This document shows, one piece after another, positions 2,107 to 15,592 of a stretch of DNA of 64,000 bases; the stretch's first letter is position 1, and every line of letters starts with the position of its first letter. A model generated the notes under the pieces. It searched no databases. It was not told the origin of the DNA and saw nothing but the letters and a program-made list of their open reading frames with translations. The DNA comes from a virus, in the IMG/VR virus record IMGVR_UViG_3300033233_000014, positions 47,630 through 111,629 of that record; one strand, given 5' to 3'. Position numbers and translations under genes: made by a program.

Positions 2107-2180
2107 TGGAGCGGGCCGCGAGAATCGAACTCGCGTCCTCGGGTTGGAGGCCCGACGCCTTGCCACTAGACGAGGCCCGC
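2107..2180 (-). tRNA. tRNA-Gly(UCC), C33 variant
   Basis: TCGGG-CC TCC AA-CCCGA; GCG acceptor start, U73-CCA. Confidence 0.88.
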
Positions 2181-2240
2181 ATCGTGCGCCGGCCTGCCTC
2201 AGCATGCCAGCGCCTCTCGAGACAGCGAGAGCCTGAAGAG

Positions 2241-2331
2241 CCGCCTCTCCCCCGACTGTTCTGCCGTTAAACTACTCGCGCGTCTACTGCACAGGGGAGG
2301 ATTCGAACCTCCATCTTTCTAAGGGGGACGG
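2241..2331 (-). ncRNA. circularly permuted tRNA-like RNA (YrlA-type effector domain)
   Basis: 5'-3' order: T arm GGAGG-TTCGAAT-CCTCC, loop-closed acceptor-like stem, D arm GTTT-AACGGCA-GAAC; ends pair CCGTC/GGCGG. Confidence 0.65.
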
Positions 2332-2335
2332 GATC

Positions 2336-2410
2336 TGGAGCGGGTAGTGGGTTTCGCACCCACGGCCTCCACCTTGGCAAAGTGGCGCTCTACTACTGAG
2401 CTACACCCGC
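2336..2410 (-). tRNA. tRNA-Gly(GCC)
   Basis: CCACT-TT GCC AA-GGTGG; CCA; T-loop TGCGAAA. Confidence 0.9.
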
Positions 2411-2417
2411 GATCTTC

Positions 2418-2503
2418 TGGCGGAGGGGCGGGGACTCGAACCCCGGACGGCGTGAGCCGCGCTCGCCTTCCAAGCGAGTTCCTCGTCCGGCCGGACCCCC
2501 TCC
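2418..2503 (-). tRNA. tRNA-Ser(GGA)
   Basis: CTCGC-TT GGA AG-GCGAG; long variable arm; G73-CCA; atypical D arm. Confidence 0.85.
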
Positions 2504-2645
2504 ACTCGACCAGGGACCGGAGTTCCGATGAAAGGAAGCCTGCCTCGGCTGGTCGAACCCGAGGCTTGCCCAGGCGTCGCGCCTGATCGGATTGTCGGGC
2601 ACTTCCGGCGCACCCGACGGCGGGCCGAAGGGAATGCCCGGCCGC

Positions 2646-2731
2646 TGGCGGAAGAGGAGGGAATCGAACCCCCACGGGAGTTACCCGGACGGTTTTCGGG
2701 ACCGTTGCGCTAGCCGTTACGCCACTCTTCC
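2646..2731 (-). tRNA. tRNA-Ser(CGA), C33 variant
   Basis: ACGGT-CC CGA AA-ACCGT; long variable arm; G73-CCA. Confidence 0.87.
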
Positions 2732-2735
2732 GAGG

Positions 2736-2811
2736 TGGTGGACCCGGCGGGAGTTGAACCCGCGATCTCCGGAATGCCATTCCGGCGTTCTTCCATCTGA
2801 ACTACGAGCCC
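2736..2811 (-). tRNA. tRNA-Ala(GGC)
   Basis: CCGGA-AT GGC AT-TCCGG; G3:U70; ACCA. Confidence 0.92.
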
Positions 2812-2887
2812 TGGTGGACCTGGCCGGACTCGAACCGGCGATCTCCGCGTTGCGAACGCGGCGCTCTTCCAACTGAGCTACAAGCCC
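2812..2887 (-). tRNA. tRNA-Ala(CGC)
   Basis: CCGCG-TT CGC AA-CGCGG; G3:U70; ACCA. Confidence 0.93.
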
Positions 2888-5862: not shown

Positions 5863-5914
5863 GCCCCCATCGTAGCCGCGATGTAGGCGTGGCGCAATAC
5901 CCGATGTAGGCGAT

Positions 5915-6287
5915 TGGAGGCGGCGAGATTTGCACTCGCGTCTCAAAGACCTTCGCCCGAAGCCTCTACGCGCGTGTCCCTGCTTCTCGTCTTTCCTCGG
6001 GCGCAGGACAGCCCATCGTCAGGCGTCTCTTGCCAAGCACCCAGTCTTTCCTGGGTGTCAGACCCTGGTGCCTTCCCTGCGCCGGGCCGTGCGCAAGGCG
6101 GGGTTGCTCGAGGTCGGCTAGGCCGCGAGCCGCAGGCCCCGAGCCGCGTGAGCGGCCCGGAAGTCCACGGTGGTCACCTTGAGGTGACTGGCTGATGAAT
6201 TGTGGTCCGCTTGTTGACGGGGCCTGCTGACCAACCCCGGCGCGCATCCCCGGACTCCGATCTCCGATCGAAAACTAGTTCGCCCCC
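5915..6287 (-). ncRNA. ssrA: tmRNA
   Basis: 5' GGGGGCGAA..TTCGA; 3' T arm plus CGCCTCC-A with G3:U70; internal frame ending ...RGLRLAA-TAG (6192-6118); 373 nt. Confidence 0.92.
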
Positions 6288-6596: not shown

Positions 6597-6672
6597 TGGC
6601 TCCACGGGTAGGGCTCGAACCTACATCATCCTGGGTAACAGCCAGGCGCTCAGCCAGTTGAGCTACCGTGGA
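6597..6672 (-). tRNA. tRNA-Asn(GUU)
   Basis: CCTGG-CT GTT AC-CCAGG; GCCA. Confidence 0.93.
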
Positions 6673-6677
6673 CCGGA

Positions 6678-6752
6678 TGGTCACGCCGAGAGGAGTCGAA
6701 CCTCTTTGGCAGGATCCGTAGTCCTGTGCCTGATCCGATCGGCCACGGCGTG
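6678..6752 (-). tRNA. tRNA-Arg(ACG)
   Basis: CAGGA-CT ACG GA-TCCTG; ACCA. Confidence 0.92.
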
Positions 6753-6798
6753 AATGCAGACGCGGTGTTCGCGCACCGCGCCCACTCGAACGTCTCGT

Positions 6799-6814
6799 CG
6801 AACTGTCAGAGAAC
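6799..6814 (-). promoter_or_regulatory. boxA-like antitermination element
   Basis: GTTCTCTGACAGTTCG after a hairpin, just downstream of a promoter; near-copy at 7356-7371. Confidence 0.55.
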
Positions 6815-6859
6815 CTCGGTCAAGTCGCGCCTCGGCGCTCGACCACGCACGAAACCTGG

Positions 6860-6888
6860 ATTCTACCACATCAGCGAATCTTTGTCAA
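6860..6888 (-). promoter_or_regulatory. sigma70-type promoter of the tRNA array
   Basis: TTGACA-17 bp-TAGAAT with extended -10 TG. Confidence 0.85.
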
Positions 6889-6893
6889 GACGC

Positions 6894-6981
6894 TGGTGGG
6901 CCGTGGTGGAGTTGAACCACTTGCTCGCCGCTCCCCATATCAGAGCGACCGCTTTACAGGCGGCCGGGGAGAACACGTCCC
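6894..6981 (-). tRNA. tRNA-Tyr(GUA) lacking a canonical D arm
   Basis: GCCGC-CT GTA AA-GCGGT; T arm and ACCA normal; only about 10 nt between acceptor and anticodon stems; long variable region. Confidence 0.75.
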
Positions 6982-7054
6982 GGTGGGCCCGGAGGGAGTC
7001 GGACCCTCGCCTTCCGGTTAAAAGCCGGCTGCTCGGCCGCTGAGCTACGGACCC
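6982..7054 (-). tRNA. tRNA-Lys(UUU)
   Basis: CCGG-CT TTT AA-CCGG; ends ACC abutting tRNA-Tyr. Confidence 0.87.
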
Positions 7055-7124
7055 GCGTGGACTACGCGGCCCGTTTCGCCAGCGCGGCGCCGGCCCCGGT
7101 ATAGCCCACCGCCGCGGCGCGCCC

Positions 7125-7199
7125 TGGTTGCCGCGGCTGGGGTCGAACCAGCAGCCCCCCGCATGTCAAACGGGTGCTCTTCCGCTGAGCTACGCGACA
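7125..7199 (-). tRNA. tRNA-Val(GAC)
   Basis: CCCGT-TT GAC AT-GCGGG; ACCA. Confidence 0.9.
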
Positions 7200-7207
7200 C
7201 CCGATGC

Positions 7208-7282
7208 TGGTAGCGGGGGCGAGGATCGAACTCGCGAACTCCAGCTTATGAGGCTGGCATGATACCGCTTCACCACCCCGCG
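7208..7282 (-). tRNA. tRNA-Met(CAU), initiator-like acceptor
   Basis: CCAGC-CT CAT AA-GCTGG; CGCGGGG acceptor with C1/U72 mismatch. Confidence 0.88.
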
Positions 7283-7355
7283 ATAGGGACGTGCTCACGG
7301 CGCCGTGCAGGGGGTCGCCTTGCACGGGCGCCGTGGTCACGCCCACGGATCGACA

Positions 7356-7965: not shown

Positions 7966-8174
7966 CAGGCCGCCACCGCGATCTCGGCGATGATCTTGTG
8001 GCACTTGACGCAGGCCACCCGCACGACGCCCTGCCCCACCACGTAGGACGCCTCGACGGCGGCCCGTGGATGGCAGCGCCCGTGGAAGAACATCTCGGGG
8101 TGGGCGTGTCCATCCGCACAGTCCAGGCACCCGCCGCCCATCGCCTTGTCGAGTTGCTTCTTGTTCAGCGCCAT
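7965..8174 (-). CDS. small Cys/His-rich hypothetical protein
   Basis: MALNKKQLD...CLDC...CVKC; coupled start/stop. Confidence 0.65.
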   Translation of the reverse strand: MALNKKQLDKAMGGGCLDCADGHAHPEMFFHGRCHPRAAVEASYVVGQGVVRVACVKCHKIIAEIAVAA

Positions 8175-8833
8175 CAGCGTCCTCCTCGCGCCAGCCTGTT
8201 CGGCACGATGGGCTGGTGCAGCCAATGTTCATCCGTCTGGACATGCTCCGCGCGCACGAACTTCGCCACCGATCGCTCGAAGTCCGCATCGGCGAACTCG
8301 TCGGACACGCGCACGACCACGCCCTCGATCTCGTCGCCGAAGGTCGGCCCCGCGCTCCGGATGAGGCCCGCGGTGAAGCGATCGACGGCTGCGCCGTCCG
8401 GCAGTTTGAACTGCGCCAGCGTCGGGACGACCTGCAAGTCGAGGCCGAGCGCGAGGCCGATGGTATCGGCCACACTCAGCCAGACGTGCCGCACCTCGTC
8501 CCGCGCCCCGAAGATGAGGAAGTAGGACGGGAGATCCCAGTACGCGATCGAGTGCCGCGCGTAGAGCCACTCCCCGAAGAGGGACACGCCGGCCGGGATC
8601 CGATGCCGAACTTCCGCCCACAGCGCCTTCGCCCGATTGAAGGAGGCATGCGTCGGCGGCCCCTCGTGCGACCGCGCGAAGATGCCCTCGCGCGTGAAGC
8701 AGCAGTTCGACCCGTCCATCTTCTCGGAGAAGTGGAGCAGCCGCCCCGCGAGGGCGCCCGCCGACTCGAGCCGGAGATCGTCCCGCGCCTCGGCGGGGCT
8801 CGACGGCAGATGCGCGATCCGCGGATACTTCAC
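8174..8833 (-). CDS. ATP-dependent RNA ligase, Rnl2-like family
   Basis: KYPRIAHLP N-terminus, motif I EKMDGSN, FGEW, EGVVVR, AKFV. Confidence 0.87.
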   Translation of the reverse strand: MKYPRIAHLPSSPAEARDDLRLESAGALAGRLLHFSEKMDGSNCCFTREGIFARSHEGPPTHASFNRAKALWAEVRHRIPAGVSLFGEWLYARHSIAYWDLPSYFLIFGARDEVRHVWLSVADTIGLALGLDLQVVPTLAQFKLPDGAAVDRFTAGLIRSAGPTFGDEIEGVVVRVSDEFADADFERSVAKFVRAEHVQTDEHWLHQPIVPNRLARGGR

Positions 8834-9015
8834 GCCGGCCCCGTCGGTTCCCAGACATCGGTGCGCGTCCCGTCCTGCTCGAGGTAGACCTCCTTCGTCG
8901 CCCCGCACCGGCAGGTGAAGAAGTAGTCACACGCCTGCGCGGCACCCTTCCCGTCCTCGTGCCACGCATGCGCGTGCGCCGGCTTCGGCAGGGGCTTCTT
9001 GGCCTTCGAGTTCAT
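8830..9015 (-). CDS. hypothetical protein
   Basis: short coupled ORF MNSKAKK... Confidence 0.55.
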   Translation of the reverse strand: MNSKAKKPLPKPAHAHAWHEDGKGAAQACDYFFTCRCGATKEVYLEQDGTRTDVWEPTGPA

Positions 9016-12939: not shown

Positions 12940-12960
12940 GACTGCAGACAGTCTGCAGTC
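12940..12960. promoter_or_regulatory. 21-bp palindrome (operator candidate)
   Basis: GACTGCAGAC-A-GTCTGCAGTC; recurs at 42229 and imperfectly at 44157. Confidence 0.6.
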
Positions 12961-15592
12961 ACGCCTCGTGGGCGAAGAGGGGGACGTTGCCGGCCAGACG
13001 GCGCCGCGCGATCTGGGCGTACTCGGGGTTCAACTCGGTGCCGATCGCGTTCCGGCCGAAGCAGTTGGCGACGAGCAACGTGGTGCCGCTGCCCGCGAAG
13101 GGATCGAGGACGGTGCAAGGCACCGGCTCATGCGGCCTCCACGTCGCGATCGGCTGTCCTTCCGGCGTGAACCCGCCGGTGTCGATCTCCTGCCCGCACT
13201 TGCACGTCGGTTCCCATCCCGCGTCCTGTCGACGGTAGGTGCCATCGTGCGACTTCGTAGCGATCGACGCCCCATACTTGAGATTGGCTTCCCGAGTGTT
13301 GGGATGCCGGCTCCAGTCCTTGCCGATCGTTCCGCCCGCCGCCACCACGACACGCCGCCACGGCGCCCCGCACTCCGGGCAGCAGCCATGCTCGCTCGAG
13401 CCCGCCTTCACGCACGGAATGACGAGCGCCTTGGGGAACGTGGCGAAATGGGCCTCGGGACAGGGCTCGGTGGCGATCTCCCAGACGGAGCGGATGTTGC
13501 GCCCTTGGAGCATGCGCTCGAGCGCCTCGGGATCGCCCCACATGCGATTCGGATTGGCGATCGCCTCTCGCCCGACCCGCACGGCGCCCTCGTGTCGGTA
13601 CTGCTTCCGCGGCGCGTCGCTCGAATCGCTGCGCTCGACCGGCGCCGTCTCCGTCACGCCCGGGAACATCTCGACTGTCGGGTTCTTGGGCTGCATCTCC
13701 GCCAGCCGAGCCGCCGCTGCCTCTGCGTCGCCCACCGACCGCTTCTGGCCGATGTGCGTCGCACCGCTCGACTTGAGCAGCGGATCCTCCGTCTCCTTGT
13801 GCTTCCCCCCGATCCGGTTCTTCTTCTCGATTACCTTCCGCAAGTCGCTCATGTTGGAGCGCAGCGGCTCCAACACGGCATGCCGATCGAAGAAGTACCG
13901 CTCGCTCTTGGCGAGTAGGAAGAGGAACTCGTGGCTCCGCGTCGGCCGATCCTCCACGCTCTCCGGCATGGGATTCGGCTTGGAGTTGTGCGTCAGCACG
14001 CCGGACGCAAGCGCGAAGACATGCGGCTCGTCTGCGACACCAAGATCCCACACCTCACGGCACCGCGCCTTCCGAATCTCGATGATCTCCCCCATGTCGC
14101 GATCGTTGTGGTGCCCGCTGCGCTCCGTGCGGATCTCGCCCTTGAAAGTCGAGCGGCGGCCGTTCTGGAACCGTGCCCACCCGGGGTTGAGCGTGAGTGT
14201 GTACCCGAGGCGGGCGCACGCAACACGAAGATCGCGCTCGAGGCTATAGTTCCGGCAGAAGCCAAGACGCCATCGCCGGTTCTTCGCGTCCCAATGCCCA
14301 TCGCCCTCAAGGTAGCCCAGGACGAACGCGGCGAGGAACCGATTCGAGTAGCGCCATACGACCGGCGCGAACGCCTTGTCGTGAGCGGTTCGGCCGGACA
14401 CGAGTTCATCAAGGATCGCGAACAACACGCGGCCGTAGACCCGGATGTTCATACAGTTCCCCGACACCGTCCGAGTAGCCGATCCGCCGTACTTTCGCGA
14501 AACACGCTGCACGCGCTCCCATCTCGCTTCTTCTTTCGCGTGGCCGGCAATCTGAATCGTGCTTCCGGCACGCGATCCCTCGGCGAGATAGAGGCCAGCG
14601 AACCATGCAGCGTCCTCGTCGAGCGCGCAGTCCCTTGGGTTCTCCGGTTCGGGCAGGGCAACACGGGAAAGCACGTCTCCGGGCCGCATTTCCGACGCCG
14701 CGAGAAGCCCACGCGCCGTAGGGAAACGGTGTGTCGTGGTGCAGGAGATCCTCTCGCCGCTCCGGAGGACGATTTCAACTTCGTTACCCGAGCGCGGTGA
14801 CATCGACATGCCGAGCAGCCGAGTCCACCGACTCCCGTTCCAGAGCTGCACCGACTCCGGCGCGAGACGGGCGAGATCCCTGACCATCGTGACCGTCTCG
14901 CCTTTCGCGGTTTTCGCGTAGACCCATGTCCCGCCGGAGAGGCACCACACGATGTCGGAACGCAGCCACCAGCCATCCTCCTGCAGCGCGAAGGCCACGC
15001 GCCAGGGCATGCCAATCAAGTCCTTCGTCTTGATCCCACCCCAGTCCCTCCGCCAGCGCGCATGCTTCTCCGGCGCCACCTGTTCCGGCCGCGGCGGCTC
15101 GTCCCCGCGCTCGGCCCGCAGCCCGGTGTACGTCCGCGCCCCGCCGTTCGAACAGAACGAGTCCCCGAGGTTGAGCCAGCAGGTGCCCTCGGGCCGCAGC
15201 ACGCGCCGGACGGCCCGGAAGACCTCGACGAGATGCTGGACGTAAAGAAATGGCGAAGGCTCGAGGCCGAGATTCCCCAGCCATGCCTCGCACTTCCGGC
15301 AGACGGCATCCTCGCGCCAGCGCGCCTTGCGGATGCGCTCGGCGTTCTCCGGCCCCGGCTCGTGGAACGCCTCGCCCGACGATCCCGCCCCGCCCCCACC
15401 CTCGACGTAGTACCGACTCTCCTGCCACTCATGCGCGCAGGCCGGATCGGAACCACCCCACACCTGGGGCTCCGTGTCGTAGCTTCTCAACCCAAAATAT
15501 GGAGGCGACGTCATCACGGTGTGGATCGAGTCGGCCGGCAACGTAGCGAGTTGCACCCGCACGTCGCCCTCAAGGATGCGCCACGTCGACAT
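12959..15592 (-). CDS. beta-class amino (N4-C/N6-A) DNA methyltransferase containing an intein
   Basis: TSPPY catalytic motif, HFATFP, DPFAGSGTT SAM motif. Confidence 0.92.
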   Translation of the reverse strand: MSTWRILEGDVRVQLATLPADSIHTVMTSPPYFGLRSYDTEPQVWGGSDPACAHEWQESRYYVEGGGGAGSSGEAFHEPGPENAERIRKARWREDAVCRKCEAWLGNLGLEPSPFLYVQHLVEVFRAVRRVLRPEGTCWLNLGDSFCSNGGARTYTGLRAERGDEPPRPEQVAPEKHARWRRDWGGIKTKDLIGMPWRVAFALQEDGWWLRSDIVWCLSGGTWVYAKTAKGETVTMVRDLARLAPESVQLWNGSRWTRLLGMSMSPRSGNEVEIVLRSGERISCTTTHRFPTARGLLAASEMRPGDVLSRVALPEPENPRDCALDEDAAWFAGLYLAEGSRAGSTIQIAGHAKEEARWERVQRVSRKYGGSATRTVSGNCMNIRVYGRVLFAILDELVSGRTAHDKAFAPVVWRYSNRFLAAFVLGYLEGDGHWDAKNRRWRLGFCRNYSLERDLRVACARLGYTLTLNPGWARFQNGRRSTFKGEIRTERSGHHNDRDMGEIIEIRKARCREVWDLGVADEPHVFALASGVLTHNSKPNPMPESVEDRPTRSHEFLFLLAKSERYFFDRHAVLEPLRSNMSDLRKVIEKKNRIGGKHKETEDPLLKSSGATHIGQKRSVGDAEAAAARLAEMQPKNPTVEMFPGVTETAPVERSDSSDAPRKQYRHEGAVRVGREAIANPNRMWGDPEALERMLQGRNIRSVWEIATEPCPEAHFATFPKALVIPCVKAGSSEHGCCPECGAPWRRVVVAAGGTIGKDWSRHPNTREANLKYGASIATKSHDGTYRRQDAGWEPTCKCGQEIDTGGFTPEGQPIATWRPHEPVPCTVLDPFAGSGTTLLVANCFGRNAIGTELNPEYAQIARRRLAGNVPLFAHEA
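13985..14944 (-). mobile_element. intein with LAGLIDADG homing endonuclease (320 aa)
   Basis: DIVW|CLSGGT...VWDLGV...LASGVLTHN|SKPNP; AWFAGLYLAEG and FVLGYLEGDG blocks. Confidence 0.92.

Follow-up and report, generated by a model that had tools for sequence, protein, structure and literature searches.

Can a phage gene that has the ends and the anticodon of a tyrosine tRNA, with no D hairpin between them, encode a working tRNA, and what would then form its core? The question is raised by the sole tyrosine tRNA gene of a phage, which is 88 nt long, lies on the minus strand (6981 to 6894) and encodes its CCA. It belongs to a stretch of 64,000 nt, the whole of the DNA analysed here and hereafter called the window. 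The source record is an IMG/VR virus of 111.6 kb, estimated to be 73% complete, with 68% G+C. On the minus strand, the first 7.3 kb of the window are densely filled with tRNA genes (41 ARAGORN calls); this array is bordered on one side by a Ro/TROVE-like ORF (2-1273) and on the other by the gene of an Rnl2-type RNA ligase (8174-8908). Rfam recognises 35 tRNAs in the window (45-69 bits) and a tmRNA at 5914-6287 (66 bits). In the whole record, ARAGORN makes 42 tRNA calls, with one call only for tyrosine. A contig from a different study (run X2) matches 6650-6979 without a difference and covers the tyrosine gene minus its first two bases; the gene is therefore not an assembly artefact.

Read from 6981 to 6894, the RNA begins GGGACGUG UUC UCCCC G GCCGC-CUGUAAA-GCGGU C GCUC UGAUAU GGGGA and, after GGGGA, continues GCGGC GAGC AA GUGG-UUCAACU-CCAC CACGGCCC A CCA. 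Its parts, and the tRNA gene that adjoins it, are as follows.

6894-6981, minus strand: whole non-canonical tRNA-Tyr(GUA), 79.1 bits (E about 1e-18) against the covariance model R1 described below, the single R1 match in the window
6974-6981, minus strand: acceptor 5' strand, nt 1-8, GGGACGUG, pairing with 6898-6905
6971-6973, minus strand: linker UUC, nt 9-11, found as UUC in 74 of 77 members although the search set no constraint there
6966-6970, minus strand: 5' strand of helix H, nt 12-16, UCCCC, pairing with 6932-6936
6948-6964, minus strand: anticodon arm, nt 18-34, GCCGC CUGUAAA GCGGU, with GUA at 6955-6957 and a 5-bp stem
6943-6946, minus strand: 5' strand of helix H2, nt 36-39, GCUC, pairing with 6923-6926
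6937-6942, minus strand: loop UGAUAU, nt 40-45, between H2 and the 3' strand of H, in all members rich in A and U and of differing length
6932-6936, minus strand: 3' strand of helix H, nt 46-50, GGGGA, complement of 6966-6970, standing for the 5' strand of a D stem
6927-6931, minus strand: motif GCGGC, nt 51-55, resembling a D loop; all listed members have G-Y-G-G behind helix H, as the scans required
6923-6926, minus strand: 3' strand of helix H2, nt 56-59, GAGC, pairing with 6943-6946
6906-6920, minus strand: T arm, nt 62-76, GUGG UUCAACU CCAC, with a 4-bp stem and a canonical T loop
6898-6905, minus strand: acceptor 3' strand, nt 77-84, CACGGCCC, complement of 6974-6981
6894-6897, minus strand: discriminator A73 and encoded CCA, read from the sequence
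6982-7054, minus strand: tRNA-Lys(UUU), Rfam tRNA match of 60.5 bits at 6984-7054

The linker between the acceptor and anticodon stems measures 9-10 nt (9 nt, UUCUCCCCG, with an acceptor stem of 8 bp), which is too short for any D hairpin, and the same short linker without a D hairpin is found in all 78 relatives described below, among the matches listed. The first-pass annotation of this DNA, made from its letters, had reported a tRNA-Tyr without a D arm and with intact T arm, anticodon loop, A73 and CCA, and the sequence bears this out. Besides the acceptor stem, discriminator and CCA, the gene has the 5-bp anticodon arm of a canonical tRNA, a 7-nt anticodon loop with U33 and R37, and a UUCRANY T loop; the D stem-loop that would separate the acceptor and anticodon stems is missing. 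The copy in the window has one A4.G81 mismatch within the acceptor stem.

The surroundings of the gene have peculiarities of their own. The tRNA-Lys(UUU) gene directly adjoins G1 of the tyrosine gene with zero spacer; it ends ...A-C-C against G1, so that its A76 would need adding after RNase P cleavage. Its T loop is UCCGACU, with a C at position 55. On the other side, 5 nt past the tyrosine CCA, a near-consensus sigma-70-type promoter sequence (6860-6888, minus strand) is aimed at tRNA-Arg(ACG); it combines TTGACA, a 17-nt spacer and TG-TAGAAT, with 11 of 12 matches (expected number in shuffles 0.0), and might serve the array as an internal promoter. In two sediment-run contigs (X1 record 2, X2 record 8), tRNA-Asn is joined to tRNA-Lys via 94 different letters, which replace the 309 nt (6672-6982) that carry tRNA-Arg(ACG), a spacer and the tyrosine gene; these contigs represent a related phage with other content in the Arg-Tyr slot. 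Elsewhere in the window, an ARAGORN 'tmRNA*' call at 2108-2828 (minus strand) extends over several tRNA genes; it is probably false, the Rfam tmRNA being that at 5914-6287 (minus strand). An 877-aa ORF (12959-15592, minus strand) encodes an N6/N4 DNA methylase split by an intein-like insert, which gives Pfam Intein_splicing and LAGLIDADG_3 matches, both sub-threshold.

Close relatives of the phage were sought without success: megablast of 6600-7300 gave no match in cultured phages. A scan with the exact anticodon arm returned only ordinary D-armed tRNA-Tyr genes. A search by way of the adjacent RNA ligase gave 46% identity at best, and the tRNA-Tyr genes at the loci reached in this way were canonical. 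As close relatives were not found, the scan was aimed at the odd feature itself, namely a D-loop-like GAGCGG between the tyrosine anticodon loop and the T loop. This first scan retrieved the identical layout in low-GC viral contigs. Wider scans covered viral contigs, one genome per species (6 matches, five of them within MAG contigs) and metagenome contigs, the last with the 5' linker left unconstrained. A covariance model, R1, was then built from 25 sequences, the window's gene among them; it recovers at least 79 genes, at least 78 of them distinct, at 63-109 bits, while ordinary tRNAs score at most 33 bits. The gene thus belongs to a family of at least 78 distinct homologues from viral, metagenome and a few genome contigs of 43-65% GC, in which the window's copy is a high-GC member (65% GC). 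Since the scans demanded G-Y-G-G, the T loop and CUGUAAA, the invariance of these three elements is partly built in.

Among cultured phages, blastn with a typical family member gave no match, R1 found no member in five whole phage records (CcrColossus, CcrSC, Phosso, Atu_ph07 and LR745208), and no member was found in this non-exhaustive search. An element shared by the Caulobacter phages CcrColossus and CcrPW was considered as a member and rejected: in blastn with the window's gene, only its T arm and acceptor 3' half match, it scores 29 bits with R1 and it has a D hairpin. The CcrColossus copy (L305:1453-1533; JX100810.1 61932-62012) is an unannotated 8/4 tRNA-like sequence with annotated tRNAs on either side. 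Its acceptor stem has 8 bp, its hairpin UCCGG-GUGG-CCGGG resembles the D arm of allo-tRNAs, and its T arm and acceptor 3' half are 88% identical to those of the window's gene; a clear anticodon stem was sought in it and not found. Separately, two metagenome copies (L394:343-430 and L395:557-645, both minus strand) show nothing unusual as far as the T loop, beyond which their 3' end is unrelated (...CCCGU...GCCA), as if each were a chimera with an adjacent tRNA.

Standard tools respond poorly to the gene. At 6894-6981, the general tRNA model RF00005 gives no match reaching its gathering threshold of 29 bits; under relaxed Rfam thresholds the best model is tRNA-Sec, which reaches 20.9 bits where its gathering score is 47. 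ARAGORN does make a call, at 6894-6990, by taking the last 9 nt of tRNA-Lys as acceptor strand and linker and GGGA/UCCC as D stem. Taken at face value, this call describes a 97-nt cloverleaf tRNA-Tyr whose acceptor 5' strand is the last 7 nt of tRNA-Lys, and the folding energy of the 97-nt stretch is slightly better than that of shuffles (z = -1.07). However, only five of its seven acceptor pairs form, tRNA-Lys is destroyed, the D loop lacks GG and the Rfam tRNA model rejects the region. Moreover, G1-A4 would have to serve in the proposed D stem, whereas across 78 homologues these bases covary with those of the 3' end, as one strand of the acceptor stem. ARAGORN detects one of the 79 family members and calls none of the other 78 genes, and no upstream tRNA 3' end is present in the members whose upstream bases were read. 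We consider it very improbable that the gene is a cloverleaf overlapping tRNA-Lys.

The fold of the family was examined by counting pairs on an alignment of 78 sequences (A4) in which a pseudoknotted structure was allowed. The 8-bp acceptor stem (GGGACGUG/CACGGCCC) has 99.4% of cells paired, and all eight pairs have changed on both sides; the eighth pair, G8-C77 here, has done so in 20 sequences. The anticodon stem GCCGC/GCGGU has 99.5% of cells paired and five of five pairs covarying. Helix H, formed between the linker and the variable region (UCCCC/GGGGA), has 97.4% of cells paired and changes on both sides in all five pairs, its middle pairs accounting for 28 and 33 sequences with such changes. 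Helix H2 (GCUC/GAGC) has 91.2% of cells paired, with four of four pairs covarying. For the T stem (GUGG/CCAC), 83.3% of cells are paired over the four positions and two of the four pairs have changed on both sides; the two G-C pairs adjoining the loop are invariant, and the outermost pair is G-C here and often U.U elsewhere. With partners slid by 1-3 columns, 43-57% of cells are paired, and none of 500 shuffles reached the observed values. Many members are close relatives from one freshwater group, so that the paired-cell counts overstate the number of independent events.

Helix H occurs in at least 15 complementary versions, for example UCUAC/GUAGA, UCUGC/GCAGA, UCCAC/GUGGA, UCGUC/GACGA and UCGGC/GCCGA. 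In one member (L339) it reads CACUC/GAGUG, and thus the two near-invariant pairs of H also covary. As H was absent from the structure given to R1, the alignment had not been fitted to it, and RNAalifold, run with no input structure, predicts H together with an invariant C11-G pair. In this model, C11 may pair with G51, which would give H a length of 5-6 bp. H2 was part of the R1 structure, so the alignment leans towards it; in an alignment-free test, the true partners of H2 form 4.27 bp, as compared with 3.49 bp (maximum 3.73) when partners are swapped between sequences.

These results revise the first-pass proposal of an alternative tRNA architecture. It had the linker complementary to the variable region through UCCCC/GGGGA and UGUUC/GAGCA, in effect a single 10-bp helix from which GCGGC bulges out. 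Both complementary segments are indeed present in the sequence. The pairing of linker and variable region is upheld by covariation across 78 homologues, in the first of these segments; the single bulged helix is not. The UGUUC/GAGCA segment is 68.6% paired as compared with 66.6% in shuffles, its C11-G pair forms in 2.6% of sequences, G8 belongs to the acceptor pair G8-C77 and the GAGC strand pairs with GCUC. In the corrected picture, the acceptor stem has 8 bp, helix H has 5-6 bp (C11/U12-C16 with G46-A50/G51), and a separate 4-bp helix H2 (G36-C39 with G56-C59) crosses H. The family comparison that the first-pass annotation had called for shows compensatory changes in H, not a simple deletion.

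The nature of this evidence matters for another reading, in which the gene is a decayed tRNA-Tyr pseudogene whose D arm was deleted and whose complementary segments arose by chance. Failure against the Rfam tRNA model and the A.G acceptor mismatch would suit such decay, as would the folding energy of the single gene, which is no better than that of shuffles (RNAfold z = -0.07); its nested minimum-energy structure is specific to the window's copy. The evidence for the fold comes from the family. There, the same architecture recurs with compensatory changes in every helix, in contigs of 43-65% GC and in many samples; the anticodon, A73 and G1-C72 are conserved, and the gene fills the vacant tyrosine slot of large clusters. 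Decay is already contradicted by the covariation, and we regard it as scarcely credible.

How, then, would the helices be assembled? The window's gene has an 8/4 branch, helix H followed by G-Y-G-G, and H2 crossing H, and it scores 79.1 bits with R1. The 8-bp acceptor stem would stack on the 4-bp T stem and give the usual 12-bp acceptor branch. The strand C11/U12-C16 is continuous with G17 and the anticodon stem, and so sits at the position of the 3' strand of a D stem; U12-C16 and then G17 would correspond to positions 22-25 and 26. Its partner strand, G46-A50/G51, comes from within the variable region. A single base (C35) separates the anticodon stem from the start of H2, and two bases separate the end of H2 from the T stem; H2 would occupy the position of the variable-arm stem of class II tRNAs. 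Because H2 encloses the partner strand of H, the two helices (12-16/46-50 and 36-39/56-59) cross, and the core is pseudoknotted. In a normal tRNA, the D loop follows the order A14-R15-Y16-G18-G19. Here, A50 and the following GCGG read A-G-Y-G-G in the same order, and so the GG could still dock on the T loop and form an elbow; only 1-3 nt connect the GG with the distal end of H2, which might constrain a true L-shape. The first-pass annotation had suggested that the bulged motif supplies the GG for the T loop, and motif order makes this likely for GCGG. Overall, the helices that match those of bacterial class II tRNA-Tyr would be kept, with three chain connections exchanged, and the molecule may adopt an L-shape.

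Several features point to a tyrosine tRNA that works. The anticodon is GUA in all listed members, including those from a scan with the anticodon left free, in which no member with another anticodon was found among the matches listed. Of 77 members, 74 have G1-C72 and 76 have A73. The tyrosine identity elements of bacteria are G1-C72, A73 and the anticodon (PMC9976931); G1-C72, A73 and G34-U35-A36 are present in the window's gene and conserved in the family. As to genomic location, other tRNA genes are present at 72 of the 79 loci, and for 59 members such a gene is no more than 300 nt away. A canonical tRNA-Tyr co-occurs at three loci only (L422, L385 and L402). At 20 other member loci, all with at least 13 tRNAs, canonical tyrosine never occurs, while every other amino acid has a tRNA at 12-18 of these loci; at one locus (L325) 19 amino acids are covered, tyrosine being the missing one. 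The simplest reading of these gene sets is that the pseudoknotted RNA is their tyrosine tRNA. At two of the exceptional loci (L422:1881-2059 and L385:2654-2842), the canonical gene follows the pseudoknotted one by 3-10 nt; the pseudoknotted copies there are the lowest-scoring members, and that of L385 has C73. The pseudoknotted genes of L422 and L385 may be undergoing replacement.

Judging from these sequence features, we think it probable that the gene encodes a working tyrosine tRNA with a non-cloverleaf, re-threaded core, for which charging and decoding are predicted. RNase P, together with 3' processing, would release the RNA from the transcript of the array. The record, estimated to be 73% complete, has no TyrRS gene; host TyrRS would therefore do the charging, recognising G1-C72, A73 and GUA, and the charged RNA would read UAC and UAU.

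The same conserved parts allow a different role, outside translation. The RNA could be a decoy for a nuclease directed at tRNA-Tyr, or a binder of TyrRS or of another tRNA-handling enzyme, in which case the anticodon loop and acceptor end would be kept only as features recognised by the target. It is known that phages use tRNAs of their own against defences that cut tRNAs, tRNA-Tyr against PtuAB of retron Eco7/Ec78 being one case (PMC11555353). The RNA-repair setting of the gene, with an Rnl2-type RNA ligase, a Ro/TROVE-like ORF and a tmRNA, is in line with a decoy, as would be a fold that ribosomes or EF-Tu might not accept. However, the clusters that lack a canonical tRNA-Tyr yet carry tRNAs for other amino acids show the pattern of a decoding tRNA. 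Rescue from the retron came from large amounts of tRNA-Tyr (PMC11555353), and the family keeps the 12-bp acceptor/T branch, which is recognised by EF-Tu (Mukai et al. 2017, PMC5389517), and an encoded ACCA in 60 of 77 members. A role outside translation thus appears unlikely.

For the preferred reading, a working tyrosine tRNA, the benefit of the fold to the phage has also to be considered. A tentative possibility is that this natural, active tRNA, re-threaded with its elbow kept, is retained by phages of several bacterial phyla because it would escape host enzymes that recognise the D-arm region, for example defence nucleases, while RNase P, TyrRS, EF-Tu and the ribosome would accept it. Such a selective advantage would fit with phage tRNAs countering defences (PMC11555353) and with the nearby RNA-repair genes; the fit is one of analogy and not of direct support. 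The first-pass annotation had pointed to tRNA-Tyr as a target of some antiphage nucleases, a link that the present results neither strengthen nor weaken.

If the gene works as predicted, it would represent a second evolved route to the tRNA core, with a pseudoknot in place of the D hairpin. Since standard tools miss the family, phage tRNA sets that apparently lack tyrosine may be complete. The family also raises the questions of what RNase P, TyrRS, EF-Tu, modification enzymes and the ribosome need of a D arm, and of whether phages reshape tRNAs to escape tRNA-directed immunity. In addition, a pseudoknotted tyrosine tRNA could serve as a scaffold for orthogonal tRNAs.

To our knowledge, the cloverleaf is regarded as universal in bacterial-type translation. 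A 2024 paper describes all known bacterial tRNAs as cloverleaves, and its engineered mini HisT without a D arm was accepted by E. coli HisS, EF-Tu and the ribosome (PMC11551756). Searches of the full-text literature yielded no account of a pseudoknotted tRNA without a D hairpin in phages or bacteria. A close counterpart is the canonical bacterial and phage class II tRNA-Tyr(GUA) (RF00005), with which the family shares the CUGUAAA loop, G1-C72, A73, CCA, a canonical T loop, A-G-Y-G-G and a helix in the variable region. Ordinary viral tRNA-Tyr genes at three other loci (L006, L011 and L002) have the same GCCGC-CUGUAAA-GCGGU arm. In contrast to the canonical class, the family has no D hairpin, a pseudoknotted D-stem-like helix and an 8/4 instead of a 7/5 branch, and it remains below threshold with RF00005.

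The 8/4 branch itself has precedents in allo-tRNAs, bacterial and phage tRNA-Ser and tRNA-His, and tRNA-Sec (PMC5389517). With the (8/4) allo-tRNAs, the family has in common the 8-bp acceptor stem, the 4-bp T stem and the occurrence in phage tRNA clusters. However, (8/4) allo-tRNAs fold as nested cloverleaves with a long-stemmed D hairpin closed by a tetraloop, and they are reported for Ser, His, Cys and Sec, not Tyr (PMC5389517). Such a hairpin is absent from the window's gene, and most allo-tRNAs have G73 or U73, whereas the pseudoknotted tyrosine family has A73.

The absence of a D hairpin is shared with the D-armless mitochondrial tRNA-Ser(AGY/UCU) of mammals and nematodes (PMC7609411). 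In these organellar molecules, the arm is simply absent and the tRNA is shortened and flexible (PMC7609411), whereas the pseudoknotted family occurs naturally in viruses of bacteria and its connector is paired with the variable region. As the D-stem helix and the GG are supplied from the variable region, the tyrosine RNA is longer, at 88 nt above standard tRNA size, and probably rigid.

Finally, the tRNA-like structures (TLS) of plant RNA viruses, such as TLS-Val of TYMV and TLS-Tyr of BMV, also mimic tRNAs by means of viral pseudoknots, and some are tyrosylated (PMC9976931). They form the 3' ends of RNA genomes and have no decoding role, and the TYMV pseudoknot builds the acceptor arm (PMC9976931). 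By comparison, the pseudoknotted tyrosine RNA is encoded by a free-standing gene of a tRNA cluster and has a normal acceptor stem and anticodon arm.
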